NCBI GenBank assembly: GCA_029974275.1
Contig: JARKSN010000316.1
Span: forward strand, 8,125 to 72,124
DNA: 64,000 nt
Source: Candidatus Hydrogenedentota bacterium
GTDB taxonomy: Bacteria > Hydrogenedentota > Hydrogenedentia > Hydrogenedentales > SLHB01
Direction of reading: 5' to 3'
The notes under the pieces were generated by a model. That model was not told where the DNA came from. It did not search any database and worked only from the letters and a program-made list of their open reading frames with translations. Below, piece by piece: positions 26,077 through 53,588 of the stretch; positions within the stretch are counted from its first letter, which is position 1, and every line of letters starts with the position of its first letter. The position numbers were made by a program, and so were the translations under genes.

Positions 26077-26196
26077 CGTTTCCGGAAGCCATTGAATCCA
26101 TGGCGACCCACGCGCGCGGGAGTGTCCCTTCCGCGCGCGTTTTTCCAATACGCGGCAGAACTGTGCCTAGAACGACCCCGGGAGGCATGCACCCTC

Positions 26197-33200: not shown

Positions 33201-36200
33201 ACATCTTCCTCGAACCCTCCAGGCTTGGCGTGAAGGGAGCGCCATGCGCCATGCGCGTTTCGCCAGCAGTGCGTTACGCCCTCCTCGCGAGAGACCTTGA
33301 AAACCTCCGTCTCGAGCAAGAGCCCGTCGCCCGGACGGACCATCGAAACGCCCCCCTTTTCCAGCATTTCGGCCAGCATGGCCCCAGAGACAGGCAATCG
33401 CGAGACAACCGCCCCGGAATCCGCCTGCACCGAGACAATGCCGGTTTGAGATTCGCGCTCGATGACGCCATAGGTCTGGTCTTTGGCGCGAAACCATCCA
33501 TAAAACGTGTATCCGGGAATGGGGGAAAGGAGACGTCGCAACCTGCCCTCAGCCGGATCGTACTGGGCCACGCTTCCCTGAATGTCTATGAAATAAACCT
33601 TGCCGTTGGAGCATTGCGCATATACGGTTTCTCGCGGATCGAATCCTGCCTCATCGAGCGCGCCGCCGCGCGCGTATTCGACGCAGGGAGCTGCAATGTC
33701 GCGCCATTCCATCATCGACAAGCGCCCGTCGGCGACGAACGCCATTCGGACCACGCCCCGATCATCCACCCGAATGCCGCCCTGGCGCACGTTCTCGGGG
33801 ATGGATGTCACCAAGCGTTGATGAAGGTCTTTTCCGACGAAAAGGACATCCCGATCGTCTGCAATGACCATTCCCGAGGAACTCGAAGCGCAGTGCTGCG
33901 GCGTCTGCTTCAGTTCGAGCGGCATTTCGCGCCAAGTGCCGCATGCGTGATCATAAACGCCCAGCGATGGATCGGGACCTACGAACACGACGCTGGAATC
34001 GTCTCGTTGCCAAGCGAAGATGGCTTTTTCCACGAGACGCCGCATGCCGCGGGCAGACCCAAAGCTATCCGCCTTCCATTGTGCGGAGGTTTTCCCTGAA
34101 ATCGGCGTCCAACGGACCAGAGAACCCTCGGCGTTGAGCGCCCAAACCCGCTGACCAGGAGCCTTTGAACCGGCCAGTTGCACCGCTGCCTTGCGCCCTC
34201 CAGGAATCTCGCGCCATGCGTTGTCGTATTGGTGGAACAACCGCCCGTCTTGCAGCCGGGCGAACACGATACCGGCGGCAGAGCATAAATCTGTCACCGG
34301 CGAGGGGGAAGAGCCGGATACGATTCCAAGCTGCGCATATGTCGCCGTATCGTTGTGGTAGGCGATCACGTGGCCGCCAGGGCCCGATGCAAGCATCGCG
34401 TTTTCGCCTGACGGCGCGATGGCGGTCGCACGACTCGGTTCGAAAGGAAAACCGCCCTTCCCAAATACGCCAGTGGAAATTCGGTCCGACACAAGACGCA
34501 GACAGCCGTCCTTGTATAGATAGACAAGGTCTTCGCCGGTCAAGCGAATCTGTTTCACCGTTTCCGGGCTGTCAGGGGAAGCGATCCAGCCGCGATCTTC
34601 GCCCATGTCGCCCGTATTCGAGGCATATTGGATGCACCGATCGCCCTTAAGAAAGGCCACCCGCCACCACTCCGACTTGCTTTCTCCGTCGCCCCGCACG
34701 TAAAGGCACGCATCCCCCAGAAACGAGGAAGAGGAGGCGGCGTCGGCGCCTAGGGTCGGCGCATGCCCTGTGCAAAAACGCCTAGGAAACCCGGTTTTTG
34801 GATAATCGTATCGGTAAATCTCGCCATTTTCCCCTAACCCCAAGAACACGCCATGGCACGAGACGACATGTTTGGCAGGACACTGGTTAAACGGGTCCAA
34901 CGCTCGCCAGTGGCTTTGCCGTTTTGGGTCGTATGCATAGCAATACGCCGCGCCGTTGCTATCCACCGCCAAGACCCCGTCGGGAAGGGCTTCCAATGCC
35001 CTGAATCCGCTTGCCCGCCGCCGCTCGTCAATCGTTCTATTTCCCTCCTGTCCGTGCCACAACGCCATGGATGCATCCTGATACCCGTGCGTATGGGCGT
35101 CATACAAAAACGTCCCGCGGTTCGTCGCGAAAAGCATCCCTTCGTCGACGGTTTTGATGCTCCGGACCTCCAGCGCGCCGACAGCGCCCTCGGGCTTCCA
35201 GCCGTTTCCGGACCTGATCGTCTCGTGTTGGCCTTGCGCCATGGGAGCCCTGGCCAGCCGAACCTCAAGCGCGGATCCGCCGGATGTGGCCTGATAGAGA
35301 CATAGCCCGCCGTCGGGGCTTACCGCCGCCGGCCCTGTGGCGTTCGCGTCGAGAACGACTACGTTTTTCGATAGGTCCTGATTTTCGGAAGCGTTTACAA
35401 GCAGCAATCCGGCATCCGTAGCCACCAGCGCTGCGCTCCCGTGCGACCCAGGAACCGTATCGATGGACGATATATTCGGACATGTCGCCACTCCGATGAG
35501 CCGGCGTTCTGTCGCATCGTAACGGAACAACGCGTTGGCCGTAGCCATCCACGTGGCGCTTTCATCTTGAGCCACCCGCGTGATGCTTGTCACGGCGTCG
35601 AGCTTCGGCGCTGTTTCGGGCTGATGCGTGAAATAGGGCCCCGCCCATCCCGCATCGGGATCGAAGAGCCAAGTGGAACCGTGCGAGTCTTGCGCCCATG
35701 CACTGTGTCCTTCATACGGGGCGTCGAGCTGGACAGCGGCCTGGGTATGCAGTTCGCCGCGATCCAGAAAATTCAGCGTTTGGCGATCTGCGCAACGGAC
35801 GCCTCCTTCCCGAAGCGTAAGCCAGACGCGATCGCGCGTCAGGCCGACATCCGCCATGTCAACCGCCGAGGCCTGGCCTGTTTGCCAGGAACGGTCTCGT
35901 TGCAATGTCCCATCCGAAAGAGGACTAAAGGTGTAGCGCGCCACGCCCGCGCCTCGAAGCGCCACTAGCCATCCCGACGCATCGAACGCATTGCCTTGCA
36001 CCTCCGCCTCCACGCTGCCGACAGAGGCGTGATGGCGCCAGTAGGGATTTTCAGGCGCCCCCAGCCACGAATTCATCGCTATCCCGCTTTTTCCATGCGT
36101 CGCATGGGACCGCTCGATAGCCTGTCCCGACGTCAAGACGAGAAACTCATCCGGTCCTTTGCCATTTGTGACGTCGAGCGTTGGATTTGGGATATGACGC

Positions 36201-36667
36201 TGCCGGACAAGACGGCTTTGCTTGTGGAGGATTGTCAGACCGTCCGATGTTCCCAGCGCCAGCCAATTTCCGTTTGACGCCATGGACGTGAATACCGTGC
36301 GCGTGTAATCCCAGAAGGGGCGTACGTCGCGCACATGGTCAAGGGTGTTCCAGGGAAACATCCACGGCAGCCTGGGGTTCACGGCAAACACCGACATCGC
36401 CGCACCCGAAAACAGGCATGCAGTCAGGAGCCCCCCCAGCGCCCAGACCGATATCGCTCGACGAGCGTAATCGTAGGGAAAGCTCGATATCTTGTAAGCG
36501 TTTGGTCGCAGTGAGGTTTCGGATGCTCCATGCTGCCGCGCGAAGTCTTCCGCCAAAGCATCGACGAAGCGAATCCGCCCCAGAATTCCTTCCTGCCACT
36601 CGCGCGGAACTCGCCGCCGCCACGCGCCCAGCAAACGGCGCAGTGTATTCAGGGCCAGCGCTTGCAT
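30290..36667 (-). CDS. Giant single-pass membrane protein with Reg_prop-like beta-propeller repeats (2125 aa from ATG 36667; 2241 aa if the TTG at 37015 is used)
   Basis: An Arg-rich cytoplasmic N-terminus, then one TM helix (ISVWALGGLLTACLFSGAAMSVFAV), then about 1900 aa of beta-rich repeats (NGNWLALGTSDGLTILH, TWMATANALFRYD, GMLFATNRGTFLYD). No catalytic motifs are evident. The ATG at 36667 overlaps the CHAT-gene stop (TGATG). Confidence 0.7.
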   Translation of the reverse strand: MQALALNTLRRLLGAWRRRVPREWQEGILGRIRFVDALAEDFARQHGASETSLRPNAYKISSFPYDYARRAISVWALGGLLTACLFSGAAMSVFAVNPRLPWMFPWNTLDHVRDVRPFWDYTRTVFTSMASNGNWLALGTSDGLTILHKQSRLVRQRHIPNPTLDVTNGKGPDEFLVLTSGQAIERSHATHGKSGIAMNSWLGAPENPYWRHHASVGSVEAEVQGNAFDASGWLVALRGAGVARYTFSPLSDGTLQRDRSWQTGQASAVDMADVGLTRDRVWLTLREGGVRCADRQTLNFLDRGELHTQAAVQLDAPYEGHSAWAQDSHGSTWLFDPDAGWAGPYFTHQPETAPKLDAVTSITRVAQDESATWMATANALFRYDATERRLIGVATCPNISSIDTVPGSHGSAALVATDAGLLLVNASENQDLSKNVVVLDANATGPAAVSPDGGLCLYQATSGGSALEVRLARAPMAQGQHETIRSGNGWKPEGAVGALEVRSIKTVDEGMLFATNRGTFLYDAHTHGYQDASMALWHGQEGNRTIDERRRASGFRALEALPDGVLAVDSNGAAYCYAYDPKRQSHWRALDPFNQCPAKHVVSCHGVFLGLGENGEIYRYDYPKTGFPRRFCTGHAPTLGADAASSSSFLGDACLYVRGDGESKSEWWRVAFLKGDRCIQYASNTGDMGEDRGWIASPDSPETVKQIRLTGEDLVYLYKDGCLRLVSDRISTGVFGKGGFPFEPSRATAIAPSGENAMLASGPGGHVIAYHNDTATYAQLGIVSGSSPSPVTDLCSAAGIVFARLQDGRLFHQYDNAWREIPGGRKAAVQLAGSKAPGQRVWALNAEGSLVRWTPISGKTSAQWKADSFGSARGMRRLVEKAIFAWQRDDSSVVFVGPDPSLGVYDHACGTWREMPLELKQTPQHCASSSSGMVIADDRDVLFVGKDLHQRLVTSIPENVRQGGIRVDDRGVVRMAFVADGRLSMMEWRDIAAPCVEYARGGALDEAGFDPRETVYAQCSNGKVYFIDIQGSVAQYDPAEGRLRRLLSPIPGYTFYGWFRAKDQTYGVIERESQTGIVSVQADSGAVVSRLPVSGAMLAEMLEKGGVSMVRPGDGLLLETEVFKVSREEGVTHCWRNAHGAWRSLHAKPGGFEEDVYDGAALGPSGNVYTVQRGELAVLMPGKNSTELEETRRERVLGKDLVSAQWFSYDRIQLTFADRTTRLVEEASEGTLRFEETLSTKTAARVDVAGEQLDFRAGPENGLDIAWSDASRAERPVWASSGDTFSFLCTKDMEILSDGSLVLITDLGLTVRDADSFRLQVVDERFRNGSLVRLEGPARVAIEMNSRFVALWQDGQLTLLTGPDALAQTSVVENGGWQWRLTRRPGMETELRIVRLDEANRTRSWRQTTAGNWKFRDDLVTWLRRDVSDGPITLETEDGFWRLQARPFQRVDKSETPLSHDPESEISTPALRIACREGKVSFRAFDGKSVFDGSRFFFDRGASFASFNEGLYVFVPGRCVVKRDPRSPATIMACFAPPSDMPSDCVPSLIGGAALRLTAREKHRLWTFQTSAAADASWQSEKLETPQVEGQVGNIVWRPISKTDMSLTPCVEAEETGAQPLPIPDWWHEDRFAWDITHAIGLLDDNRTGVLVTQAGLARVDLAQAGQYPMTLTVLRGQTRCDVARANGKRTGVVVGGDAEFPQYHVSCMEGPWRLERIDASPSLRSVAHLMVAFQDDGMLGKRRLELTQSWIPRDLLSKNAPLLRSRIPDISDDRLLADGRFVFDAADAGCALESFPGKEKLWLLATHSQNPENGGSSFLCLNAIEENRLVLRDIKPCPRRIDRIREAELGSFFTAQREGTGETVSWRFHRSSWKDGPLAWEEIDAQTTGNAFRVGDTVVLRAPALAWSSEPRYAWSDLASAPFTASPADYAALIDIGNCRAMAFDVLTSAAMLPALEYVAVGSLGGILLLPWHEDGKQALRDARLVIGDEKNRIRGVERVRVFDDVDGRPAIWARTSAMEATSFRCEVGHAVIDLCFGKQPWSFQTPAPDGGILRVEADGLLRGKGDSMYAVSNDAWRLGRKPLRDVADILGDAAFSCTWVCTRSEGLFKAVSDRKRPRRVSSP

Positions 36668-38010
36668 CACATCGTTCGTCTCATGCGACGGAAGTGTCGG
36701 CGGAATGGAGAAATCCGCATCCTCGGCGAGGTCTTCCAAAAAACATCTCCAGACATCCCAGCGGACCTCAGTCGAGAAATCCTCTGTAAGCGCCAGCCAC
36801 ATGGTCGCGCACGAACTTCCCAGCCGCGCCGCCAGTTCCGTCGGTTGCAGGGCGCGCACCAGATGAAACTGGTTGTGTATCGCGCGAACCGCCATTGTTT
36901 CAGGCTGGTTCTCGTGGTGCAGTAAAAGGTGCAGAAAACGTGCGTACGACTCACCGTTTCTGATGGATTCAGGGCCCACCGGGTAAAGAACTCCGCGGCG
37001 AGTTTGACGACGCAATGGATAGCGAGCGGCGGATCCTGGGAATCAAGCGCCGGCGTCTGGGCCTGATGCATCCCCAGCCGGATGTCGATGCTGGCGCCGA
37101 CGAAAAAACGAACCCCGGCGTCGAGGAAGGCATGCGGATATGAGAGCCCCTGCTCTTCGCGGCCTGATGGGTCACGTCCCGCGCTGTAGCAACAGCACGC
37201 GTACACCAGTTCCGGGACGATGCGTCTTTGGTTGGGTGCGGTGGATGATGTCTGGTCTGCGCGCAGAAAACGCCGGAGATCGGAAATCGACAGCACGTGT
37301 CCCGGGTGCAACAGCCAACCTCTTCCCTTGTCCGACGGGTCGGACAAATGACCCAAGAAAAAAACGGCGCGATGCTTGCGAAATATCTCGATCAAGAGGT
37401 CGAAGCGCCCCGCATCGTCGCCTTTGAGCCGTTGAAATTCCTCGCCGCTGAAGGTGTCCACAATCAAGTAAGGTTGCAACTGCCTCTGGAGCGATTTGGC
37501 CTGAGACTCGAACAATTCGTTTCCGTCCCCTGTCGCGTAGAGAATGGCAAGAGTTCTTTCGGGCGGCCGGTCGACAGGCGGACACGCCAAGTGGTCTATG
37601 ATCCGGTAGACAGGGCCTAGGGTGTCGAGCCATTTCTCGCCTGCGGGGAGCAGTTCTGGCAGCAGCTCACAGGATTGATAGGTGAGGATCAGCGTCAATG
37701 GAAGAGGCGGCGTGGAGGACTGCATGGCTTGGGTCACCAGATCGAAGCCCTTTTCCCATCCGATAAAACTAAGCAAATCGGCGCCTGCCGCCACAGGATA
37801 CGGTCGTAGCGGATCGTCGAGAGCCTCCTTCATGGATGCGTGCATTCGCCCGATCGCGCCGTGCAGGAGAGAATCCCAACGCTTTCCGGGATCAACGATG
37901 GGGTGCGATAGGGGAGCCGATGTCTTGTCCGCCGCTGAAAAGATAACCAGAAGGGGGGATTGCCCTTCTTCGGGATAATGAAGCGAGAATGTTGCGGATG
38001 CCTCGTTCAT
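36667..38010 (-). CDS. CHAT-domain (caspase-like) protease-family protein, cytoplasmic
   Basis: Catalytic-dyad-like motifs AVFFLGHLSDP (His) and PELVYACCCYSAGRD (Cys), with the spacing typical of the CHAT/caspase fold. No signal peptide. ATGA overlap with the upstream gene. Confidence 0.7.
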   Translation of the reverse strand: MNEASATFSLHYPEEGQSPLLVIFSAADKTSAPLSHPIVDPGKRWDSLLHGAIGRMHASMKEALDDPLRPYPVAAGADLLSFIGWEKGFDLVTQAMQSSTPPLPLTLILTYQSCELLPELLPAGEKWLDTLGPVYRIIDHLACPPVDRPPERTLAILYATGDGNELFESQAKSLQRQLQPYLIVDTFSGEEFQRLKGDDAGRFDLLIEIFRKHRAVFFLGHLSDPSDKGRGWLLHPGHVLSISDLRRFLRADQTSSTAPNQRRIVPELVYACCCYSAGRDPSGREEQGLSYPHAFLDAGVRFFVGASIDIRLGMHQAQTPALDSQDPPLAIHCVVKLAAEFFTRWALNPSETVSRTHVFCTFYCTTRTSLKQWRFARYTTSFIWCAPCNRRNWRRGWEVRARPCGWRLQRISRLRSAGMSGDVFWKTSPRMRISPFRRHFRRMRRTM

Positions 38011-38930
38011 GCGGGGGTGTTCTCGCCAGCGTCCGGCGCTGTGCCCGCCACTACGGGCAATTCGATCGTCACCTCGCGCAACTCGCCCGAACGGGTCGCA
38101 CCGGATAGAAATAGACGCAACGGTTCGGTCGTCGGCGGTGCAATCCGGAAATCGATCCCTCCTTCCCTGCGCAGGTCTCGAGCGCCCGTGGCAGGACGCT
38201 CGGAAGTTCCCAGCGCCACCGAGAGGGGAAACGAGGTTTCCCCGACGAGGTCACAATGGCATACCCAATAGACGGCCTCTCCGTCCTTGAGATATTCCTC
38301 CCGCAGAGTGATCCGGATCGTCACGCCAAAATCCTGGACGGGTGCATCCAGAAGAATTCGGTCCGGATACTCCGTCAAAGCAGGCACAGGTTGAATCCCC
38401 GTGCAGGTCCAGATGCCTACGCGCAGTCCTGGCTCAAACGCGGTTTCCAGCATTCGGATCCCGGCATGCGCGGCCTCCGATACGTGTTCCGCAAGCCGCC
38501 ACTTCTTGCCACGCAACACCAGCATTTGAGACGGGAAGGCGCCGACGCACGAGTGGGCGAAGTCCAGCCATTCGCGGCGTTGCTGGTTCATGTCGAGCAG
38601 GAGTGCCTTGGTCGCTTCTGGGAAAGGCTCGATGCCTTGGGTATGCGTTGCAACCGGTTGCTCGGTTTCCTCCTTCCAAAATTCAAGCGCGGCAAGGATG
38701 CTGTCAAGACCGGCTTGCGCGACATGGGGATCTGTTTCAAGATTCTTGATCACGGTAAGAAAACGGTCGAATTCATCGGCGGCCCGTTTCCGGAAAAAAG
38801 ACACGGCCTCCCGAATATCCGCTTCGGGCACGTTTTCTCCCGCAAGATAGTCAAGAATCATGTTTCGAGCCCTCTGTGCCGCGTCAATATCAGCTTGAGC
38901 GGGCACGATAGGCCGACTATTGGAATCCAT
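38007..38930 (-). CDS. Hypothetical protein (307 aa), coupled to the CHAT gene
   Basis: The ATG at 38930 is confirmed. The stop overlaps the CHAT start (ATGA at 38010-38007). Acidic, helical N-terminus; no known motifs. Confidence 0.6.
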   Translation of the reverse strand: MDSNSRPIVPAQADIDAAQRARNMILDYLAGENVPEADIREAVSFFRKRAADEFDRFLTVIKNLETDPHVAQAGLDSILAALEFWKEETEQPVATHTQGIEPFPEATKALLLDMNQQRREWLDFAHSCVGAFPSQMLVLRGKKWRLAEHVSEAAHAGIRMLETAFEPGLRVGIWTCTGIQPVPALTEYPDRILLDAPVQDFGVTIRITLREEYLKDGEAVYWVCHCDLVGETSFPLSVALGTSERPATGARDLRREGGIDFRIAPPTTEPLRLFLSGATRSGELREVTIELPVVAGTAPDAGENTPA

Positions 38931-38938
38931 GTTGTCTC

Positions 38939-40600
38939 CTATTTCATCTGTTTGAGAAGCTTGAGCAGGTGATCACGCTCGTCACCCAAGGCGGGATTCA
39001 GGGTGTCCGCGGTGTTCTCAGAACTCCTTTTCCGCTCTTGATGCAGGTACCAGCCCGGGGAAACGAAAAAGTCAATGCGCCAATCAGGCATCTTTGCTTG
39101 CGTGTGGACACGCGTTAGTTTTTGGTCGCATTGATCCGCGCGGAACCGTTCCAGGGCCTCGCACAAGCGGGCCTTGTCGCGCGGCTCGGTGTTTGGGCTG
39201 ATCAGCCCTGCCGATCGGGCCGAATCGAGCATTGCGCGCACGCGCTGACATGCTTTCTCCGGCTCAAGCTTCGTGTCAACGAGCACGCGAGCGAGAAATG
39301 CCCAAGCCAGAGTCTCTTCGTCACGCGCGGCCCTGCCCAACGCGGCCAGATGGCGCAGTGTGGGAAGGTCCGTCTTGTCCCATCCGGTTTCTTGGGCGAC
39401 TTTTTCCAGCACGGCCATATCGCCTGGAGGCTCTGGAGATGTCGCCCTGAGGCCAGCGACCAGAGCCGTCATGCGTTGCCGCAGTCTGCGCCGCGGCGTG
39501 TAAAGGTCTGATGGGCTGATGGTTATATTAGGCGCTGATTCCAATTCGCGCTCCATTTCCTCGTCGGAGATGTCCCCGTTTTTCCACATATGCAAGACAA
39601 GATCTTTCCAGATAACTTTCACTCGGCTCTGCGCCTTGACCTGGAAAAAGGTTTCCACCAACTGGTAGCGCTCGCGAATCATCGTCAGGCGCTCCATATC
39701 GTCTTCCGGCTCCGGCGCGGGAGGAGCAGAGGGCGGCTGGGGCGTGTTGCAGTTGCTGCGAAGGATGTTTTCCGCCACGGCGGCAATCCAATGGGGCAAC
39801 GGCCCTGCGTATCGGTAGCCCCCGTCGGGATCCTCCCAGTGTTCGAGCACCCGCAGGACGGCTTCCGAGACGGCAGCATCCGCGGTCCATTCTCCGGCTC
39901 CGCATGACCATCGCGCTTGGAGAGTCTTCGATATTTTCCCGAGTAAGCTTGCTAACTCCTGTTCGGCCTTCTGGATAGACATCGTTTGGCATGTCCTGGT
40001 AGCCAGAAAACGAACAACGGGATACCAAGTGAGGAGGTTGTCCGCGATTTGTTCGATCTGAGGTTGAGCGTAGGTAGCGATGAGGGAAGGGCGGAACTTG
40101 CGACGGATATATTCCCGAAGTTCCGGAATCAATGCGGGTGGAGCAGAGGCAAGAACAAGCTGATCGAAACGGCGAAGAAGTTTTTCGTCGGGGACGCCGC
40201 GATTGTTCCAAAACGCCCGCACCCGATCCATGAACGATCTTGGATTGTGTTGCAGCGTTCCCAAGCGGGTGGGCGCAATGTCCTTCTTAAACGCGTCGGC
40301 CATCGCAACGCACTCATTGTAGTGAGAGTCATTCTGGACGAGTTCTTCAAGTGCGAGGCCGGCATTCGCGGCAAGCGCTTCGATCAGCTCCAGCAGCGGA
40401 ATGTTTTGTCTGGCGCAGTTTTCGATGGCTCTAGGCGATGGCGTCGAGGAAGACAGGCGGGTCTGGGGGGCGGAGAGTTCTGTGGCGACTATTTTGGCAA
40501 GCAAGGTCGCGTCAAGCTGCGTTCCCAGGACCTTCTCACATATTTTATGAATATCATTGCAATGCGGCGCGTCAGACAAAGCAGGACTTTCTTGTTCCAT
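38939..40600 (-). CDS. Hypothetical alpha-helical protein (553 aa), first gene of the CHAT operon
   Basis: A long ORF preceded by an AT-rich gap (40601-40700). No catalytic motifs recognized. Confidence 0.6.
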   Translation of the reverse strand: MEQESPALSDAPHCNDIHKICEKVLGTQLDATLLAKIVATELSAPQTRLSSSTPSPRAIENCARQNIPLLELIEALAANAGLALEELVQNDSHYNECVAMADAFKKDIAPTRLGTLQHNPRSFMDRVRAFWNNRGVPDEKLLRRFDQLVLASAPPALIPELREYIRRKFRPSLIATYAQPQIEQIADNLLTWYPVVRFLATRTCQTMSIQKAEQELASLLGKISKTLQARWSCGAGEWTADAAVSEAVLRVLEHWEDPDGGYRYAGPLPHWIAAVAENILRSNCNTPQPPSAPPAPEPEDDMERLTMIRERYQLVETFFQVKAQSRVKVIWKDLVLHMWKNGDISDEEMERELESAPNITISPSDLYTPRRRLRQRMTALVAGLRATSPEPPGDMAVLEKVAQETGWDKTDLPTLRHLAALGRAARDEETLAWAFLARVLVDTKLEPEKACQRVRAMLDSARSAGLISPNTEPRDKARLCEALERFRADQCDQKLTRVHTQAKMPDWRIDFFVSPGWYLHQERKRSSENTADTLNPALGDERDHLLKLLKQMK

Positions 40601-40809: not shown

Positions 40810-41787
40810 TCAAACCGTGACGACGGCGCCCGCGCGGGCGGATTCGTACAAGGCGTCAATGACCCGCATGTTGGCGATGGCGTCTTCTATGCTCCATCGG
40901 AGCGGATCGCGCGTGCGGCAAGCGCGCACGAAGTCTTCGATTTCAAGCGCATAGGAATTGGCCGCCGGCACGTTGACCACTTCCTCGCGATCGCCCCGGC
41001 GCAATAGAAACGTGGCGCGCTCGTTGCCGGGAAGCCACGGCGAGGGAATGAGGATCGAGCCGTCGGCGCCTTCAATCTCGGCGGTCTCTCTCGCGTATGA
41101 CTCGATGCCGCATTCGAGGTGCGCGAGGATGTTGTTGGGGAACTCCAGGATGCCGAGCATCAGATCGTCGACGCTGGTGCGGCGTTCGAATGCGGCTACG
41201 CGGATAGGTTCTGCGCCGGCGACAAGCCGCGACAGGTTCACGCAGTAACAACCGACGTCCATGAGCGAGCCGCCAGCCAGTGCGGCGTCGGCGATAATGC
41301 TGTCCCGGCTGTGCATCCGGAATGAAAACGCGCTGCGGATCGTCGTAATAACGCCGAGGGCGCCATCCTGTATCAGGCCGAAGATGCGGTCGTACTGCGG
41401 GTGATAACGGTACATGAACGCTTCGCCGAGGGGCAGGCGCTTTTGCGCCGCCACGTCGGCGACCCGGCGGGCTTCGGCGGCGTTGGCCGCGAAAGGCTTC
41501 TCGCACAAAACCGGCAGTCCCGCCTCGAGGGCCTTGATGGTCCACTCCGCGTGCAAGCTATTCGGCAACGGATTATACACGCAGTCAATCTCGGCGGAGT
41601 CGAGCATCTCCTGGTACGATCCGAATACCCGCGGAATGCCTTGCTCCTTTGCCCATTCAAGGGCGCGCGTGTATTCGCGACTCGCCACGGCTTGCACGCG
41701 GGTGTCGTAGCATTCGGCCATGGCCTTGATGAAGGTGCGCGCGATCTTCGCCGTGCCCAGAATGCCCCACCGGACTTCGTTCATCAT
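40810..41787 (-). CDS. Gfo/Idh/MocA-family oxidoreductase (third paralog)
   Basis: VRWGILGTAKIA...GLPVLCEKPFA. The likely start is MMNEVRW. Confidence 0.85.
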   Translation of the reverse strand: MMNEVRWGILGTAKIARTFIKAMAECYDTRVQAVASREYTRALEWAKEQGIPRVFGSYQEMLDSAEIDCVYNPLPNSLHAEWTIKALEAGLPVLCEKPFAANAAEARRVADVAAQKRLPLGEAFMYRYHPQYDRIFGLIQDGALGVITTIRSAFSFRMHSRDSIIADAALAGGSLMDVGCYCVNLSRLVAGAEPIRVAAFERRTSVDDLMLGILEFPNNILAHLECGIESYARETAEIEGADGSILIPSPWLPGNERATFLLRRGDREEVVNVPAANSYALEIEDFVRACRTRDPLRWSIEDAIANMRVIDALYESARAGAVVTV

Positions 41788-42034
41788 GCTACGCCTCCCC
41801 GTGCGCCGGCCGCGCCGCGATTTTGGGTTCATGCCCAAGCGTCAAGCGAGTATACATAAGAGCGGGGGGCGCAACAAAAAGAAGCATTGGCCGCCAATCG
41901 CCCCGATGGAATGGCAGCGACTCCCATCGCTCCACGACGGCACGTGATTTTCTTCGAGCGATTGTGGGAAGACGCGGGGAACGTATGCTAGACTTTTCCC
42001 CTGCGGCGCAAAGGTCGTGACGCGGGAGGATGCC

Positions 42035-42820
42035 ATGCCGGAATATATCGGGACGCACATGGATGCGGGATGTTTGTGGATGACGCTGCAGCGCCCCAAG
42101 GTGAATGCGCTCAACGTGGAACTTCTGCGGGAAATTCGGGAGACGGTTCAGGCTGCCGAAGCCGATGCGGCGATTCGGTGCATGGTCATTCATGGCGGCG
42201 CAGGGAAATTTTTCAGCGGCGGCGCGGATATCCCATCGATCCAGGACGCGCTGGGGAGCGATCCGTTCGCGAAAGGCGCGTTGCTTTCAGAGGGACAGCA
42301 GACGATGAATGTCATCGAAGGCTGCGGCAAGCCTGTTATCGCGGCGGTGAATGGCGCGGCCCTAGGCGGAGGATGCGAGTTGGCGTTGGCGTGCCATCTG
42401 CGCCTTGCTTCGACGGAGGCGACGTTTGGCCAGCCCGAAATCAATCTCGGCATCATGCCGGGCTGGGGCGCAACGTACCGGCTCGCGAGGCAGATCGGTC
42501 ATGCGAGGGCATTGGATTGGATGCTGACGGGCCGTATGGTCGACGCGCAAGAGGCCTACGAGGCGGGCCTGCTCTGTAAACTCGTGAAGGCCGAGGAACT
42601 GGAGGCGGCCGCGCAAGAGCTTGCGGGCACGGTGAGCCGAAAGTCGCCGCTGGCAATGCGGGCGATTCTGGAAACCGTCCAAAATCAGGCCTTGCATCCT
42701 GCCGATGCCAGCGAGCTGGAGACTCGCGGGTTTCAACGATGCATGGCAAGCCACGATGCCGTTGAAGGCGTTTCGGCCTTTCTGGATAAGCGGACGCCGC
42801 ATTTTACGGGAGAATCATGA
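42035..42820 (+). CDS. Enoyl-CoA hydratase/isomerase (crotonase family)
   Basis: IHGGAGKFFSGGADI oxyanion-hole motif and GAALGGGCELALACHLRLAS. Confidence 0.85.
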   Translation: MPEYIGTHMDAGCLWMTLQRPKVNALNVELLREIRETVQAAEADAAIRCMVIHGGAGKFFSGGADIPSIQDALGSDPFAKGALLSEGQQTMNVIEGCGKPVIAAVNGAALGGGCELALACHLRLASTEATFGQPEINLGIMPGWGATYRLARQIGHARALDWMLTGRMVDAQEAYEAGLLCKLVKAEELEAAAQELAGTVSRKSPLAMRAILETVQNQALHPADASELETRGFQRCMASHDAVEGVSAFLDKRTPHFTGES

Positions 42821-45276
42821 CAGTGAGGCGTTTAGGAACGTTTGCATGCGCGATAGGAGCGGCGGCGTTGCTGTCCGTATCCGCACAGGCGCTAGAAGCG
42901 GGCGCGGCAAAGGTGGACATTACGCCCGGCCTTGGCACGCCGCTGAATGGATATGGGGCGCGGCTGGGACAAGGGGCGGCGGCGGTGCACGACCCTATCA
43001 CGGCCCGGGCGCTCTACCTGGAGGACGGCCAGACGCGCCTGCTGCTGGTTGCGGCCGATCTGTGCGTCATCAATCGCGAATTGCGCGATCGCGCGCTGGA
43101 ATTGGCGCCGCGCGATGTGCCGCCTGAAAACATTTTTCTTGTCGCGACGCACAATCACAGCGGGACGGGGGGGATGGTGCGCCCCCTGATCTTTCGATCG
43201 ATTTCGGGCCGCTTCATGCCGGAGGTGTTGGAGGCCGCCGCCCAAAAGTTCGCGGAGGTTATGCGCGCGGCCATCGGGGCTCGCCAACGTGCGGCCATCG
43301 GCTATGCGACGTTCCAGCAGAACGATCTGTCGCGCAACCGCCGCGTGCCAGACGGTCCTGTGGACACGCAGGTGGGCGTGATTCGCGTTGAAAACGCCGA
43401 CGGACGTCCCATCGCCGTCATGGCCAATTTCGCCGCGCATCCCACGAACGTTCCCGAAGAAGACGCCCTCTCTGTTTCCGCCGATTATTGCGGTTTCTAT
43501 TATACGGAACTCGAGGCGTTGTTGGGCGAAAGCGCGATCGCCCTGTTCACCAATGGCGCGGAAGGCGATCAAAAATGCGCCGCGCCGCATGGCGAAGATG
43601 GCTGGGCCAAAACCGAGGCGGTGGGACGGTTGCTTGCCCAACGCGTAAACGAGGCCGCCCAGAAAATTCGGTGCGACGAAAGCGCGCTGCGGGTCGCCTC
43701 CGCGCAGGTCACTCTTCCGAAAACCCTCGCGGATTCGTTTCTCCCGCAGGACACGACGCTGAAGACCATCGAAATCAATGATTTGCTGCTGACGTTTTTC
43801 CCGGGGGAGCCGTGCGTCGACATTGGGCTCGAATTGCGGAAACGGACGTTGGCGCGCGGATACGGGGCTCAATTTTCCGTGGGACTTTCGAATGATCATC
43901 TCATGTATTTCGTGCCTCGTTCGATCTACAGCACGACGAGCTACGAATCTTCCATGAACTTCTATGGACCGGGCATCGAAGACTTTTTTTACCGCGAATT
44001 CAGCAAGCTCATGAGCCGAGGAACGCCGGAGCCCGACCCGGAGCGGCCTGCAGAGCCGGAGATCGCAGCATTGCCCGGATCGCGTCGCATAACATTGACA
44101 GGTTCCGCTTACGCGATTGGATACATGCGCGGAATGGCGTTTGCCGAGGAAATTCGCGCGCATTATCGGGACCGCGTTTGGGCCCGGGTTGAGTCCAAGG
44201 CATGGACCCCCAAGACGGGCTTGTGGAATCTGGCCCCTCCGTTCCTCAATCAGACGCCGTTGGCGTTGTCCTTTCTCGCTTTCAACGCGAGGCCTTTGCT
44301 GAAAGGGCTTCCAGACGACTTTCTGCGCGAGGTTGAAGGCATGGCCGATGCCTGCGCGTTGCCCTTCGATGCGGTTTGGCTTTCACAGTGCGCGCCAGTT
44401 TTCGAGGTGCAGGCGCGGTCTGAAGACATCTACCGCCAGCCCTACTGTACGATGTTCGCGTTGACGGGCAAACGTACGGAACGGGATGGCGTTCTGATCG
44501 GTCGCAATTTCGATTGGCCTGCGGCGGAGGCGATCGTCGTGGAGGATGTGAAGCCTGCGACAGGGCGTCGGTTCGTGGCGATTGGTTTTCCGTGGACGGC
44601 AGGGGTGTTTACAGGAATGAATGACGCGGGCCTTGTGCTATGCGCCGAGAGGGTGGAAGCCCTCGGAACGCCTTCTTTGACCGGTCCGCCGATCGAAATG
44701 GCGTTGCGTCAGACCTTGCAGACCGCGGGAACGCTTCCGGAAGCCTTGGCGCAATTGCAGGCGGCTTCGCATCTGCGCGGGTTTCATGCGCTCGTGGCCG
44801 ACGCGGCGTCGTTGGATGCGCGCATCATCGAATACGGCGCGACGCAAGTTGTCCGCGCGCCTGTCGAGGGTCTGCTGCTTGGAATCGATCCGGCGAGCCC
44901 CAACGCGGACGACTCCGGCAGCAAACGCTACGCGCGGGCGGCAGAGCTTATCGGCGACAAACAAGCGCTTGCTGCGCCGCGCGTTCAAGAAATCCTTTCG
45001 GACGGCGATCCCGCGCAAAACGGAACGGCGCGCATCTTTAACGAGCAGACGCGCTGCTCCGTGGTTTTTCAGCCCAGGATTCGCCAGATCCGCGTCGCGT
45101 TTCCGGATGAGAGCGGCAAACCGGGGCCTTACACGGTGGTGCGCCTTGGCGAAGTCGACGACGTGCAGCCCCAAGCAGCGACTGGAAGCAGTCGCGACGC
45201 CGCCAAGATCGCGACGCAGCAAAACCGCCGGGCTTCTTCCAGCGGAACGCGTTCTAGCCGCAAGGAGGGGTCGTGA
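42817..45276 (+). CDS. Secreted fusion protein: neutral/alkaline-ceramidase-like N-terminal domain plus Ntn-hydrolase (acid-ceramidase/NAAA/choloylglycine-hydrolase-like) C-terminal domain
   Basis: Signal peptide. The N-terminal domain has KVDITPGLGTPLNGYGARLG...HDPITARALYL...VAADL and ATHNHSGTGG (compare the neutral ceramidase G..DITP / THTHSGPGG). The C-terminal domain has YCTMFALTGKRTERDGVLIGRNFDW (compare ASAH1 [21 protein letters not shown]). ATGA overlap with the crotonase gene. Confidence 0.6.
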   Translation: MTVRRLGTFACAIGAAALLSVSAQALEAGAAKVDITPGLGTPLNGYGARLGQGAAAVHDPITARALYLEDGQTRLLLVAADLCVINRELRDRALELAPRDVPPENIFLVATHNHSGTGGMVRPLIFRSISGRFMPEVLEAAAQKFAEVMRAAIGARQRAAIGYATFQQNDLSRNRRVPDGPVDTQVGVIRVENADGRPIAVMANFAAHPTNVPEEDALSVSADYCGFYYTELEALLGESAIALFTNGAEGDQKCAAPHGEDGWAKTEAVGRLLAQRVNEAAQKIRCDESALRVASAQVTLPKTLADSFLPQDTTLKTIEINDLLLTFFPGEPCVDIGLELRKRTLARGYGAQFSVGLSNDHLMYFVPRSIYSTTSYESSMNFYGPGIEDFFYREFSKLMSRGTPEPDPERPAEPEIAALPGSRRITLTGSAYAIGYMRGMAFAEEIRAHYRDRVWARVESKAWTPKTGLWNLAPPFLNQTPLALSFLAFNARPLLKGLPDDFLREVEGMADACALPFDAVWLSQCAPVFEVQARSEDIYRQPYCTMFALTGKRTERDGVLIGRNFDWPAAEAIVVEDVKPATGRRFVAIGFPWTAGVFTGMNDAGLVLCAERVEALGTPSLTGPPIEMALRQTLQTAGTLPEALAQLQAASHLRGFHALVADAASLDARIIEYGATQVVRAPVEGLLLGIDPASPNADDSGSKRYARAAELIGDKQALAAPRVQEILSDGDPAQNGTARIFNEQTRCSVVFQPRIRQIRVAFPDESGKPGPYTVVRLGEVDDVQPQAATGSSRDAAKIATQQNRRASSSGTRSSRKEGS

Positions 45277-46841
45277 GCGAGGTTGTTCGGGTGTTTACGC
45301 CAGGCGATGCGCGACGCAGACGGCGACGTGGGCTCTATCGCCGCATGGCGCTGGCGGTGGGCGTTCTTGTGATTCTCTATTTGATGGTCAGTTCATGGGA
45401 CCGTCGTTCGTATAGCCAATTCGTTCCAAAAGACCAAAAATATGGCGTGGTCATCACCGATCTCCTGAGACATCGCGACGCGTTGGCGCAATCCGCAGTG
45501 TGGCGGGCGTTGCCGCCCTCTATCGGCGCGAACGGCATTCCAGCCTTACTGACATCAAGCACAGGGCTTCCAGAGTGGGTGCTTAACAATCTGATTGGCG
45601 GACCGTGCTACATCACGGGTCAAGACATCGTCGCCTTTCGCGACGTCGTAATCATCACGCGCATGACGATGATTGGCAAGCAACTGGAGCGGTTAAGCGC
45701 CTTCGCTTCTGCGATCGAGAACGATCCCGCGGGCGGGCTCCGCCTGCGCCATGTACGGGGAACCAGCGTTTATTTTGCCGTGCGCGGACGTCTTTTCCTG
45801 CTGTCACGATCCCGCGACGCGCTGATCCGTTCCCTGACGCTCCGGCCCGAGGATGTCGTCTCGGATGATCCGTTGCTGACCCAGACCGCCAAGTCCGGCA
45901 CCGAACACGTGCGCGGCATGGTGATATTATCGCCGGACGACCCCCTCGGCAAGCACATCCGTTCGCTACGTTTCGCCTTGCGCATCGACGCCGCCGCGGC
46001 GCACCTGCGCTGCCGCGTGAAGCTAGATGAGAGTCTTGAGGCCTCTCTCTCTCCCCTGTTGACCGATCTTGGCCCTAAGCCGTTGATCGCGCCGCCTGAC
46101 GGCATGATCGGGCTTTCGGCCAATCTCGGACATCCCATCAAAGACGTGTGGGCGTCGCTCGCTCCGGCCCTTCCCTACCCGATTTTTGCCGCGCAACAGT
46201 GGGAAGCCTGGCAGACCGTCTCGCCCGGGCGACAACCGGGATGGTTGCACATGCTGACGGGGTTGCTGGGCCTGGCGGGCCCAGGGTTCGCCCTGAGCGT
46301 GAGCGGTGTCGACCAGAACGAAATGCTGCCATTGCCGTTGCTCGTCGGACTATTCGAGGCCCCAAACGACGCCATCCAGAAGGCTGCCGCGTCGTGGCCG
46401 CCGTTGCCGGATACGGCAAAACCGTGGGATAGCATTCCCCGCTATGAGACCGACCACAAATGGATTCGTCTGCCGTTGATAGGCGGCCCGTCGTTGGAAC
46501 CTGTGGCGGCGCCGTATGGCGATGCACACTTATTGTTCAGTTCAAGCAGGACTGTGGCCGAAGCGATGTTGACCCAGCCCCAACCCCCTCAGCCCCTGGC
46601 CACGCCGGGCAATCTGTGCCTTCAGATCAAGCCGCTCGATTGCGTGCAAGCTCTCGCCGATGCCGGCCAGCAATTGGCGGACAGCAATCTGTTGCGCGGA
46701 TATGCGCCGGATTCGTTTAGGGCCGACGCGGCGCGGTGGATCGAACAAGCTCAAAACGTCCGGTCGCTTTCGTTTTTGCTGACGCGCGACAACGGCGAAC
46801 TTGCCGCTCAGGCTGATCTATTCTGCACAACCGGCGACTAG
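45273..46841 (+). CDS. Membrane-anchored hypothetical protein (N-terminal TM anchor)
   Basis: N-terminal RRRRRRGLYRRMALAVGVLVILYLMV anchor. A GTGA overlap with the preceding gene. Confidence 0.55.
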   Translation: MSEVVRVFTPGDARRRRRRGLYRRMALAVGVLVILYLMVSSWDRRSYSQFVPKDQKYGVVITDLLRHRDALAQSAVWRALPPSIGANGIPALLTSSTGLPEWVLNNLIGGPCYITGQDIVAFRDVVIITRMTMIGKQLERLSAFASAIENDPAGGLRLRHVRGTSVYFAVRGRLFLLSRSRDALIRSLTLRPEDVVSDDPLLTQTAKSGTEHVRGMVILSPDDPLGKHIRSLRFALRIDAAAAHLRCRVKLDESLEASLSPLLTDLGPKPLIAPPDGMIGLSANLGHPIKDVWASLAPALPYPIFAAQQWEAWQTVSPGRQPGWLHMLTGLLGLAGPGFALSVSGVDQNEMLPLPLLVGLFEAPNDAIQKAAASWPPLPDTAKPWDSIPRYETDHKWIRLPLIGGPSLEPVAAPYGDAHLLFSSSRTVAEAMLTQPQPPQPLATPGNLCLQIKPLDCVQALADAGQQLADSNLLRGYAPDSFRADAARWIEQAQNVRSLSFLLTRDNGELAAQADLFCTTGD

Positions 46842-46875
46842 AGAGGACGAATCGGTGGCCAGGCCGGTATCCATG

Positions 46876-48354
46876 AAATATGACATGTCCCATTCACCCG
46901 CGATTGTGTGGTTTCAGCAGGACCTTCGCCTTACAGACAATCCGGCGCTCTTCGCAGCGGCCGATCGAGGCCCGGTGGCGCCCGTCTACATTCACGCGCC
47001 GGAAGAAGAAGGGGAGTGGGGCCTAGGCGCGGCGAGTCGTTATTGGCTACATCAGTCCCTTGTCGCATTGGACGCTTCTTTGCAAGCGCGCGGCCTGCGC
47101 TTGGCGCTGCGACGCGGCCCGACGTTGGACGCCTTGCGCACGATCGCCGCCGAAACCGGGGCGCGATCGGTTTTCTGGAACCGTCGCCACGACCCCGTTG
47201 GCGCCGCGCGGGAAGCCGCGGTCGAACAGGCGCTGCGCGCGGACGGCATCGAGACGTTTCCACACGTTTCCGCGCTTCTCTTCAACCCGGATCGTATCCG
47301 AACCCAGCAAGGGGGGCCATACAAGGTTTTTACGCAGTTCTGGCGCGCTTGCCAGGCCTCTGACGAACCGCCGTCGCCGTGTGCCGCCCCATCGTCCCTG
47401 CGCGGGCCGGAATCATGGCCCCATTCCGAGAAAATCGAGGCGCTTGGGTTGGAGCCGCGCGTTGATTGGGCGGCCGGGATTCGCGGCGCATGGCGTTTCG
47501 GCGAGGCGGCGGCTCGGGACCGTCTGGTTTGTTTTCGAGACGAAGCGCTGGAGCGGTATGCGACGGGACGCGACGCGCCCGCGGAGGAGTTGACCTCGCG
47601 ACTGTCTCCGCACCTGCACTTCGGCGAACTATCGGTGCGCCAAGCATGGCACACAATTCAGGAAGCTGCGCTGCATCGGCCCGGCAATAACATCGACGTT
47701 TCGGCGCAACGCTTTTTGACCGAGCTGGGTTGGCGCGAGTTTGCACATCACTTGCTAATCCACTTTCCCAACACGCCGACGCAGCCGCTGCGTCCGGAGT
47801 TTGCGCGTTTCCCGTGGCGCCGCGATCCCGATCGTCTGTGCGCGTGGCAACGTGGACAAACCGGATATTCTATCGTCGACGCGGGCATGCGCGAGCTATG
47901 GGCCACTGGGTGGATGCACAACCGCGTCCGCATGATCGCGGCGTCGTTCTTGGTGAAGGACCTGTTGCTGCCGTGGCAAGAAGGGGCCCGGTGGTTTTGG
48001 GACGCGCTGGTTGACGCGGACCTTGCCAACAACACCTTTGGGTGGCAGTGGAGCGCGGGGTGTGGCGCGGATGCGGCTCCGTATTTCCGCATTTTCAACC
48101 CCGTGACGCAAGGTGAACGTTTTGATCCGCAAGGCCGGTACGTGCGGCGCTGGGTCCCCGAACTTGCGGCGCTTCCAGACGCGCATATTCATCGACCGTG
48201 GGAAGCGCCCCGCGATGCCCTGGCCCGTGCGTCCATAACGTTGGGGCATGACTATCCCGCCCCGATCATCGATCATCGCGAGGCCCGGCAGGAAGCTTTG
48301 CTTGCGTTCCAGCGGATTCGCGCAATGGCCTCGGCCCCCCAAAAACTGGTATAG
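46876..48354 (+). CDS. phr: Deoxyribodipyrimidine photolyase / cryptochrome family
   Basis: IVWFQQDLRLTDNPAL at the N-terminus. The FAD-binding region is TGYSIVDAGMRELWATGWMHNRVRMIAASFLVKDLLLPWQEGARWFWDALVDADLANNTFGWQW. Confidence 0.9.
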   Translation, partial: KYDMSHSPAIVWFQQDLRLTDNPALFAAADRGPVAPVYIHAPEEEGEWGLGAASRYWLHQSLVALDASLQARGLRLALRRGPTLDALRTIAAETGARSVFWNRRHDPVGAAREAAVEQALRADGIETFPHVSALLFNPDRIRTQQGGPYKVFTQFWRACQASDEPPSPCAAPSSLRGPESWPHSEKIEALGLEPRVDWAAGIRGAWRFGEAAARDRLVCFRDEALERYATGRDAPAEELTSRLSPHLHFGELSVRQAWHTIQEAALHRPGNNIDVSAQRFLTELGWREFAHHLLIHFPNTPTQPLRPEFARFPWRRDPDRLCAWQRGQTGYSIVDAGMRELWATGWMHNRVRMIAASFLVKDLLLPWQEGARWFWDALVDADLANNTFGWQWSAGCGADAAPYFRIFNPVTQGERFDPQGRYVRRWVPELAALPDAHIHRPWEAPRDALARASITLGHDYPAPIIDHREARQEALLAFQRIRAMASAPQKLV

Positions 48355-48385
48355 TGACGCAAACGAAGATTGAGCGCAGGACCAC

Positions 48386-49090
48386 ATGCGAGAACGGAAA
48401 TCCGCCATGACCTCTCCCGAGAACGCCAGAAAGAGCAAGCGCTCTTTTTCCGCCCGCTTGGCCCGGAGCACGCGCACGCGCATGATCTCCGGCTTGTTGG
48501 TGCTCGTGCCCCTGGTGGTCACGTACTTTGTGCTCCAGTTCCTGTACAAAATGTCCGTGGGCACCTTGCTCCCCCTATTGAACAAGGTCGATCTGCAACT
48601 CCCCGAGTACGCCAAGCCCCCCGTGGCTCTGCTTGTCGTGTTTGTCGCGATTTATGTGGCGGGTCTTCTCGCGGGCAACTATGTGGGCCGCAAAGTGATT
48701 GCCTTGGGCGAGGCCATTCTCCGTCGCATTCCCGTAGTCAAGACGGTCTATTCCGCTTCAAAACAGGTTGTAGACACTTTCAGCATCAAGGACAAGCAAG
48801 GATTCAAACGAGTCGCCTTGGTCGAATATCCGCGACCTGGCATCTACGCATTGGGGTTTGTGACCGGAGAGATCCGCCTTCCGGATGGACGGAACTGTTA
48901 TATTGTATTCATACCGACCTCGCCTAACCCAACCTCGGGTTTTTTGGAGGCCGTGCCCATGAGCCAGGCGGAATTGCTCGACCTGTCGATCGAGGAGACG
49001 CTTCGGGTTGTCATGTCCGCCGGCATTTTATCGCCGGAGTCACTGGTTCGCGCCTCGGACGCATCTCCGGAGAAAACGGAGACGTCATGA
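48386..49090 (+). CDS. DUF502-family membrane protein
   Basis: [21 protein letters not shown]...[19 protein letters not shown]...ALGFVTGE matches the DUF502 pattern. Confidence 0.75.
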
Positions 49091-52558: not shown

Positions 52559-53584
52559 TCAGAACAGTGCAGTCTGCTGCGGCGCCTCGGGCGGTTTAAG
52601 GCCGATGTGGACGTATGCGCGGGGCGTGGCGACGCGGCCCTGCTGGGTGCGCTTGATGAACCCAACTTGGATCAGAAACGGCTCATGGACTTCTTCAAGC
52701 GTCTGGGATTCCTCGCCCACCGCAACGGCTAGCGAGGAGAGTCCCACCGGGCCGCCATTGAATTTCTCAATCAGTGTATGCAGGATGGCGCGATCCATGT
52801 CGTCCAACCCAAGTTCATCGACGCGCAACAACCGCAACGCAGCGTCCGCCATTTCCTGCGTGATGGCGCCCGTTCCCTTCACCTGTGCATAGTCGCGCAC
52901 GCGCCGCAACAGGCGGTTTGCAATACGCGCCGTGCCACGCGACCGCGACGCAATCTCCAGCGCGCCGTCGGAATCGATCGGCACATCGAGAATCCGTGCC
53001 GCACGAATAATGATCGCCTGCAACTCCTTCGGCGAATAGAACTCAAAACGGCACGTGTCGCCGAACCGCGCGCGCAACGGCGGCGTTAGTAGCCCCGCCC
53101 GCGTCGTCGCGCCAATCAACGTGAACGGCTTCAACCCAATCTTCATCGAACGCGCCGTCGGCCCGCGCCCGAGCAAGATGTCCACCTCAAAATCCTCCAT
53201 CGCCGAATACAGCGTTTCCTCGACGGCGTGGTTCAGGCGATGGATCTCGTCGATGAATAGAACGTCGTGCGCTTCAAGCCCCGTCAAGATCGCCGTCAGG
53301 TCCGCTTGCCGCTCGATGACCGGACCGGAAGTGGCCTTAAAGTCCACGCCCATCTCGTTCGCGAGAATACGTGCGAGCGTCGTCTTGCCCAGCCCCGGCG
53401 GGCCGTTCAGCAGCAGATGGTCGAGCGGCTCGTTGCGTCCCTTCGCCGCGAGAATCGCGATGCGCAGTTTTTCCTTGATCGGGTCCTGTCCCGGAAAATC
53501 CTCCAGCCGTTGCGGGCGGATCTGCTCGTCAAACACTGTCTCGTCCGACAGCGGTTTGGGATCGAGGACATCGTCCTGTGACAT
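52559..53584 (-). CDS. ruvB: Holliday junction branch-migration helicase RuvB
   Basis: [23 protein letters not shown] (Walker A) and Walker [10 protein letters not shown]. The ATG at 53584 is confirmed (MSQDDVLDP). Confidence 0.95.
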
Positions 53585-53588
53585 GTGC

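Follow-up and report, generated by a model that had tools for sequence, protein, structure and literature searches.

Neutral ceramidases, such as PaCDase of Pseudomonas aeruginosa (PDB entries 2zws and 2zxc) and human ASAH2 (4wgk), are exported zinc enzymes in which the catalytic domain is accompanied by a C-terminal beta-sandwich domain. An unrelated amidase fold is that of the N-terminal nucleophile (Ntn) hydrolases with a cysteine nucleophile, which include acid ceramidase (ASAH1) and NAAA (family C89) as well as the isopenicillin-N acyltransferase IAT/PenDE (family C45; 2x1c, 2x1d and 2x1e), a peroxisomal enzyme that uses acyl-CoA. Here, we describe a gene from a Candidatus Hydrogenedentota bacterium that joins these two folds in a single exported polypeptide of 819 amino acids (aa). 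The gene occupies positions 42817..45276 on the plus strand of a 64,000-nucleotide (nt) stretch of contig JARKSN010000316.1 (positions 8,125 to 72,124; hereafter, the window) and is the middle member of a gene triad, with an enoyl-CoA hydratase (ECH) gene upstream and a gene for a membrane-anchored orphan protein, which we call the partner, downstream.

A sequence-only reading of the window had proposed a secreted fusion of a neutral-ceramidase-like domain with an acid-ceramidase/NAAA-like domain. The open reading frame (ORF) was found exactly where it had been placed, both halves score above their Pfam cut-offs, and all of the quoted motifs were located: DITPGLGTPLNGYG at aa 34, HDPITARAL at 58, ATHNHSGTGG at 110, YCTMFALTGK at 543 and GRNFDW at 562. 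All features of the gene given below are on the plus strand. A Sec-type signal peptide, called by a rule-based reading of the sequence, occupies aa 1-25 (42817..42891) and reads MTVRRLGTFACAIGAAALLSVSAQA followed by LEAG, with an AQA/LEAG junction. The same n-h-c pattern, with AxA followed by LEAG or FEAG, is present in essentially all of the 36 relatives that we aligned, which are 48-58% identical to the window protein. This agrees with the proposed secretion. The mature part (the precursor minus the signal peptide is ~86 kDa) begins with the neutral/alkaline-ceramidase-type zinc amidase domain (aa 26-405; 42892..44031), assigned by PF04734, fold and alignments. This is followed by a linker and a C45 pro/alpha segment, mostly helical (aa 406-543; 44032..44445), which ends at the predicted self-cleavage junction Y543/C544, and by the beta chain of a C45 Cys-Ntn domain (aa 544-779; 44446..45153), assigned by NF040521, PF03417 and the fold match to IAT. 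The polypeptide ends with a disordered Ser/Arg-rich tail (aa 780-819; 45154..45273; pLDDT 30-38). The tail is species-specific: it is present here and in a few other proteins (e.g. P0032) and is missing from most relatives. That two distinct genes were merged artificially, through faulty sequencing or assembly or through a frameshift, has a negligible probability and we rejected it, since hundreds of independent full-length two-domain sequences come from many samples and sources, the ORF is single and uninterrupted in six independent loci, and the structure model of the fusion is confident and compact.

The N-terminal half matches PF04734 at 70.1 bits against a gathering cut-off of 32.1 (E 2e-19), as the sequence-only reading had expected. 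The family profile matches neutral ceramidase in the PDB at E 5e-25, and a Foldseek search of the PDB with the model of the fusion returned 2zws as the best match for this half (E 4e-25), with 2zxc within the range that extends to 4wgk (E 1e-22). In sequence alignments to 2zws and 4wgk, seven residues fall on the zinc-binding and catalytic motifs of 2zws. H112 (43150), H208 (43438), E331 (43807) and Y364 (43906) align with the His/His/Glu/Tyr zinc positions of neutral ceramidase and are the probable zinc ligands, while H114 (43156), R175 (43339) and Y376 (43942) align with the neighbouring His, Arg and Tyr as accessory residues. We take the roles of these residues to be those described in the 2zws and 4wgk structure papers. 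All seven are invariant in 36 of the 36 relatives, so the residues aligned to the zinc ligands of the ceramidases are present. The catalytic-domain fold and the export are common to the fusion and neutral ceramidase.

The likeness does not extend to the name or the substrate. Sequence identity between the N-terminal domain and the neutral ceramidases is only 17-20%, and the domain scores 47.9 bits with the neutral-ceramidase equivalog NF041649 (EC 3.5.1.23), for which the cut-off is 1200. The zinc domain is ~85 residues shorter between the segments aligned to 2zws residues 223 and 393, and the second, C-terminal domain of the ceramidases is absent from the fusion by Pfam, with the C45 module in its place. 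Because of this low score, the shortening and the lack of the beta-sandwich, the N-terminal domain is, as judged from its sequence, a member of the superfamily for which the name "ceramidase" is not justified, and the ceramide/sphingolipid specificity that the sequence-only reading had suggested is unsupported. By similarity, the domain groups with a large family of standalone bacterial proteins of ~400-450 aa, none of which has been characterised to our knowledge.

The C-terminal half showed a comparable pattern, in which the fold class was right and the family label was not. NF040521 (C45_proenzyme, named 'C45 family autoproteolytic acyltransferase/hydrolase') matches at 126.6 bits against 85 (E 1.3e-36), with profile positions 1-311 of 313 on aa 428-756, and PF03417 (acyl-CoA:6-aminopenicillanic acid acyltransferase) matches at 32.2 bits against 23.2 (E 1.1e-7). 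The checks proposed earlier, PF02275 and PF15508, gave no match at E <= 1. Among the Foldseek matches to this half, IAT was on top (2x1c, 2x1d and 2x1e; E 4e-16 to 3e-15, TMt 0.77-0.79, 2x1c being the best), followed by the NAAA precursor 6dxw (E 4e-11, TMt 0.61) and acid ceramidase (5u84/5u81; E about 2e-9, TMt 0.62), with bile salt hydrolases and penicillin V acylase as a third tier (E 1e-7 to 1e-6, TMt about 0.5). Among solved bacterial structures, the sequence profile detected CV2077 alone (3gvz; profile E 3.4e-6, TMt 0.72), an uncharacterised C45-like protein that has a single domain where the fusion has two. Taken together, the C-terminal module is a Cys-Ntn hydrolase of peptidase family C45, of the isopenicillin-N acyltransferase type. 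The Cys-Ntn nature proposed in the sequence-only reading therefore stands, and its acid-ceramidase/NAAA/penicillin-V-acylase label gives way to C45 (TMt 0.78 for IAT vs about 0.61).

Two other families were considered for this module and rejected. Membership in C89 (acid ceramidase/NAAA; PF15508) was set aside as there is no Pfam match at E <= 1, and membership in C59 (penicillin V acylase and bile salt hydrolases; PF02275) because there is no match at E <= 1, the folds rank in the third tier and a pro/alpha segment of ~130 residues is present. The family profile matched the NAAA beta chain in the PDB at E 0.13 only; together with the missing PF02275 and PF15508 matches, this places the likeness to NAAA and acid ceramidase at the level of the superfamily. 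At that level, the two have in common the Ntn superfold with a helical alpha subunit and a Cys-Thr N-terminus with Arg and Asp partners, which in acid ceramidase are Cys143, Arg159 and Asp162 (PMC5915598). The Arg and Asp are offset from the Cys by +19/+22 in the fusion vs +16/+19 in acid ceramidase and NAAA. In addition, acid ceramidase requires a separate lipid-presenting helper protein, saposin-D (PMC5915598), which invites an analogy with the partner gene of the fusion. The partner protein is unrelated to saposins, however, and the likeness of the fusion and its partner to acid ceramidase and saposin-D may be read as an analogy only.

The nucleophile is Cys544 (44446-44448), and R563 (44503), D566 (44512), N602 (44620) and R704 (44926) are its supporting residues. 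All five are invariant in the 36 relatives, and this Cys/Arg/Asp/Asn/Arg set is typical of Cys-Ntn amidases. The earlier estimate of "280 aa or so" for the C-terminal part is to be corrected to 276 aa, counted from Cys544. With its pro/alpha segment of about 130 residues, the complete C45 module begins near aa 406-428, and the IAT structures match aa ~405-790 of the fusion including this segment. In the AlphaFold2 model of the 819-aa protein (mean pLDDT 86.1, pTM 0.85, with the 36 relatives as input alignment), the segment forms helices over aa 431-532 and the loop at aa 535-541, directly before Cys544, has a pLDDT below 50. Such a low-confidence loop and the full coverage of the C45 proenzyme profile are as expected for a self-cleaving junction, and C45 self-cleavage between Tyr543 and Cys544 is predicted. 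The chains computed for cleavage before Cys544 are 56.7 and 29.3 kDa. All 36 relatives have F, L, Y or M immediately before Cys544 (P1), where IAT has Gly; in each, the Cys nucleophile comes after a flexible junction. Identity between IAT and the C45 half of the fusion is about 16%. In the fusion the C45 alpha segment is also covalently linked to a second enzyme, which is not the case in IAT.

Since the best structural match is an acyltransferase and the NF040521 name covers both activities, we considered whether the C45 module could act like IAT and move an acyl group from the zinc domain onto another amine by transamidation. The model suggests that the two domains have a fixed mutual arrangement (pTM 0.85), which would place both sites within one rigid particle; moreover, the reverse reaction is within the capacity of neutral ceramidases, and acyl transfer within that of bile salt hydrolases. 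Nevertheless, IAT uses acyl-CoA, which is unavailable outside the cytoplasm, whereas the fusion has a signal peptide and is exported. There is also no evidence for an acceptor substrate, and the link to ECH fits the release of free fatty acids. We therefore regard acyl transfer as improbable.

The conserved gene context of the fusion consists of the ECH gene and the partner gene. The ECH (crotonase) gene (42017..42820, plus strand; PF00378 at 1.4e-55) is the first gene of the triad and shares its last 4 nt (ATGA) with the beginning of the fusion gene. Its product has no signal peptide and is thus cytoplasmic, and the catalytic Glu motifs GGGCE (Glu121) and QPE (Glu141) are intact. ECH lies directly upstream of the fusion also in loci L001, L004, L005 and L006/L007, and the order ECH-fusion-partner was found in 5 independent loci whose outer flanks are all different. 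The partner gene (45273..46841, plus strand) encodes 522 aa with an Arg-rich N-terminal tail, one transmembrane helix at ~aa 24-43 and an extracytoplasmic alpha/beta domain of roughly 480 aa after the helix. In 8 of 8 loci, the fusion and partner genes overlap by 4 or 8 nt at the fusion's stop codon (4 nt in the window), and the strong AAGGAGG ribosome-binding site that precedes the partner gene in the window is contained in the DNA that codes for the Ser/Arg-rich tail of the fusion.

The partner is 34-46% identical to the proteins encoded downstream of the fusions in L001, L004, L005, L006 and L009, and all of its named homologs are from Hydrogenedentota. It has no Pfam match even at E <= 10, no NCBIfam match and no sequence relative in the PDB. 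Its structure model (pLDDT 86.7) gave a sole, weak fold match, to TP0453 (E 6.5e-4, TMt about 0.43), a treponemal lipoprotein that inserts into membranes. Two stretches of the partner, aa 167-190 and 411-434, share a short motif (AVRGRLFLLSRSRDALIRSLT and YGDAHLLFSSSRTVAEAMLT); an internal duplication was not significant by hhalign (probability 6.5%). PADLOC, run on the three triad proteins for anti-phage defence, gave no match, and no riboswitch or other RNA element was found upstream of the operon. A promoter and terminator scan of 41500-48800 gave sites no more numerous than in shuffled sequence.

The architecture is not restricted to this genome. More than 258 protein clusters (90% identity) carry both Pfam domains, nearly all of them 770-840 aa long, so the database search for the same architecture that the sequence-only reading had called for was positive. 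An exhaustive search of 1.84 billion representatives returned 11,503 matches at E <= 0.001, 300 of them below 1e-30. Full-length alignments extend over about 70 representatives (50% clustering), the most divergent being roughly 27-30% identical, and the matches ranked lower are standalone N-domain proteins of ~400-450 aa. Fusions occur in at least Hydrogenedentota and Planctomycetota. A scan of genome contigs found one Hydrogenedentales genome only, as a single-sequence query gives narrow patterns, and its two Faecousia matches are standalone relatives of the N-terminal domain. A second fusion paralog was not found within the window. Annotation pipelines already name both domains, for example in the JGI name of P0008, while the literature searched contained no relevant paper on a PF04734-type and C45 fusion or on a Hydrogenedentes ceramidase. 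In agreement with the earlier statement that the combination is uncharacterised, the architecture is thus widespread in metagenomes yet unstudied in that literature.

In addition to these intact forms, we observed fusions in which the catalytic residues are replaced. Among the retrieved full-length fusions aligned to the family hidden Markov model, 129 retain all 12 catalytic positions. At 35-47% identity to the window protein, by contrast, either the zinc site or the Cys, or the two together, are gone from many representatives. The conservation of the Cys-Thr expected by the sequence-only reading therefore holds for the 36 closer relatives and breaks down, together with the zinc ligands, in a large sister group. 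In P0132, for instance, H112G, H208L, E331T, Y364A, C544G, R563H and D566S are seen in a pairwise alignment in which the flanks are well conserved. By strict criteria for loss, and with counts that are not phylogenetically independent, 34 of 70 sequences have both sites intact, 23 have lost both, 10 the Cys only and 3 the zinc site only. In a rough neighbour-joining tree of these 70 sequences, the doubly degenerate forms are largely contiguous and adjoin the window clade, with the single-site losses at the edges. This joint loss is, on the alignment, consistent with the two sites serving one pathway. In some of the 'Cys-lost' forms, the nucleophile position is taken by Ser or Thr, and these residues might still serve as Ntn nucleophiles. 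P0047, P0092 and P0139, which are otherwise close relatives, have a recurrent C544S and R563C pair; here Ser may have taken over as the nucleophile without function being lost.

Three doubly degenerate fusions, in L009 (6001-8427; P0162), L010 (5001-7283; P0132) and L011 (2931-5276; P0140), keep an overlapping partner of ~525 aa, and ECH is missing beside them. Because these loci keep the partner without ECH, the fusion-partner pair is the conserved core of the system and ECH accompanies the intact clade. The same loci raise the question of whether the window protein itself is mainly a non-catalytic binding or scaffold subunit for its partner, its intact residues being incidental, given that, by strict criteria, key residues of the two sites are missing from at least 23 cluster representatives, of which these three demonstrably have the overlapping partner gene. 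We consider this very unlikely for the window clade, in which 12 of 12 catalytic residues are invariant in the 36 relatives despite an identity of no more than 48-58%, indicating strong selection on catalysis, and which alone carries the ECH gene.

A more distant clade of active-type fusions, which includes P0188 from a Candidatus Brocadiia (Planctomycetota) metagenome-assembled genome, has neither the partner nor ECH beside it. Some of its members are triple fusions of ~1100 aa (P0159, P0172, P0187, P0209 and P0228; L012 5500-8802 and L013 6001-9339) with an extra C-terminal alpha/beta hydrolase of ABHD18/S9/DLH-like type that has a GxSxG motif. A two-domain fusion in L014 has as its neighbour a free-standing alpha/beta-hydrolase gene on the minus strand (8434-9447) that is homologous to the third domain (blastp E 7e-14). 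From this single adjacency and the triple fusions, a serine hydrolase is linked to the two amidases, which fits a scheme in which acyl groups in ester and in amide linkage are taken off one after the other.

From the domains, the intact catalytic residues, the signal peptide and the gene triad, we propose, with a probability of roughly 55%, that the window fusion is an exported (periplasmic or secreted), self-cleaving N-acyl amidohydrolase with two active sites that is served at the membrane by its partner and feeds fatty-acid catabolism. In this proposal, the precursor would be exported by Sec and lose its signal peptide, after which the C45 module would cut itself between Tyr543 and Cys544 to give a ~57-kDa chain, containing the zinc domain and the C45 alpha segment, and a ~29-kDa C45 beta chain that would stay together as one rigid particle. 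The first site would use a water activated by zinc on H112, H208, E331 and Y364, aided by H114, R175 and Y376, and the second the thiol and the free amino group of the N-terminal Cys544, aided by R563, D566, N602 and R704. Both sites may break non-peptide N-acyl amide bonds, most likely those of amide-linked acyl chains in lipids or lipid-like molecules from dead microbial biomass. The partner, anchored in the inner membrane and translationally coupled to the fusion, could tether the enzyme, hand over substrate or do both, and the freed fatty acids would enter beta-oxidation, which is the pathway of the co-transcribed ECH. A lipid and fatty-acid role fits the ECH link, the esterase link of the distant clade and genome predictions for Hydrogenedentota, which are predicted to degrade lipids, fatty acids and lysed biomass and in which beta-oxidation is widespread (PMC10866078).

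Several observations weigh against this proposal. The N-terminal domain is trimmed and scores far under the equivalog cut-off, and its pocket may therefore differ from that of the ceramidases. The C45 enzymes known to us, IAT and insect Tan, act on small soluble amides rather than on lipids. The correlated loss of the two sites is drawn from counts in which shared ancestry is uncorrected, and since degenerate relatives keep the partner, the pair has a value independent of catalysis. The ECH linkage is limited to one clade, and the lipid-related fold match of the partner is weak. The window fusion lies among housekeeping genes (gyrA, ruvB, photolyase) rather than in a catabolic island, and sugar-nucleotide and glycan genes lie on either side in L004 and L005.

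The latter encode DegT aminotransferases, epimerases, a GT2 glycosyltransferase, an LbH acyltransferase and a radical SAM enzyme, a set that one expects where envelope glycans are made. They bring in another explanation with the same chemistry, namely envelope housekeeping, by which the complex would remodel or recycle lipids or glycolipids of the cell's own envelope at the outer face of the inner membrane, for instance by trimming their amide-linked acyl chains while the envelope is being built, instead of digesting foreign material. The pair is conserved across the phylum and lies among core genes, the partner is fixed in the membrane of the cell that makes it, and the degenerate forms that retain it suggest a structural or binding role in the envelope. 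On the other hand, the glycan-gene flanks are limited to 2 of 8 loci, the linkage with ECH suggests fatty-acid breakdown and the distant active-type clade is without the partner altogether. We hold this explanation possible but clearly the less favoured, at about one chance in a few.

A bolder and more doubtful extension of the N-acyl amidohydrolase proposal is that the fusion and its partner form a membrane-tethered periplasmic machine, so far of Hydrogenedentota only, that strips amide-linked acyl chains from complex lipids, and that a large sister lineage, its catalysis lost, re-used the pair for lipid binding or handling. If true, this machine would parallel, in bacteria, the lysosomal acid-ceramidase/saposin system, with both known soluble ceramidase-type folds in one particle, and would represent a new envelope lipid-processing system together with a natural enzyme-to-pseudoenzyme series.

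Both domains belong to known amidase superfamilies; what is new is their combination, the linked orphan membrane protein and the operon tie to beta-oxidation. If the two sites act sequentially on amide-linked lipids, the system would explain how this phylum, which is predicted to feed on the lipids of dead cells, has access to acyl chains that lipases cannot release. Lipid A, ornithine and other aminolipids, sphingolipids and lipopeptides come into question as substrates. The graded loss of one or both sites with the partner kept is a ready system for studying the change from enzyme to pseudoenzyme, and the fusion family offers a first handle on thousands of short bacterial PF04734 and C45 proteins, most of which are apparently uncharacterised.

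The remaining genes of the window were surveyed as well. On the minus strand, an ORF of 2241 aa (30290-37015) has no Pfam match at E <= 1e-4 and a third-position GC of 0.66, slightly under that of its neighbours; it may encode a giant surface protein, or the ORF may be over-extended. Three consecutive minus-strand ORFs of 447, 307 and 553 aa (36667-40600), which have no Pfam match, lie just upstream of a Gfo/Idh/MocA oxidoreductase gene (40810-41838, minus strand). Directly after the partner gene is a photolyase gene (46801-48354, plus strand; PF00875 and PF03441), which is not adjacent to the fusion-partner pair in the other loci. Its true start is probably further downstream, because the listed TTG start overlaps the 3' end of the partner gene by 41 nt. 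The presence of gyrA (21610-24165, plus strand), the only tRNA gene in the whole window (24256-24328, plus strand), a BadF/BadG/BcrA/BcrD-type ATPase gene (26092-27207, plus strand) and ruvB (52559-53731, minus strand) indicates that the region is ordinary chromosomal core sequence.

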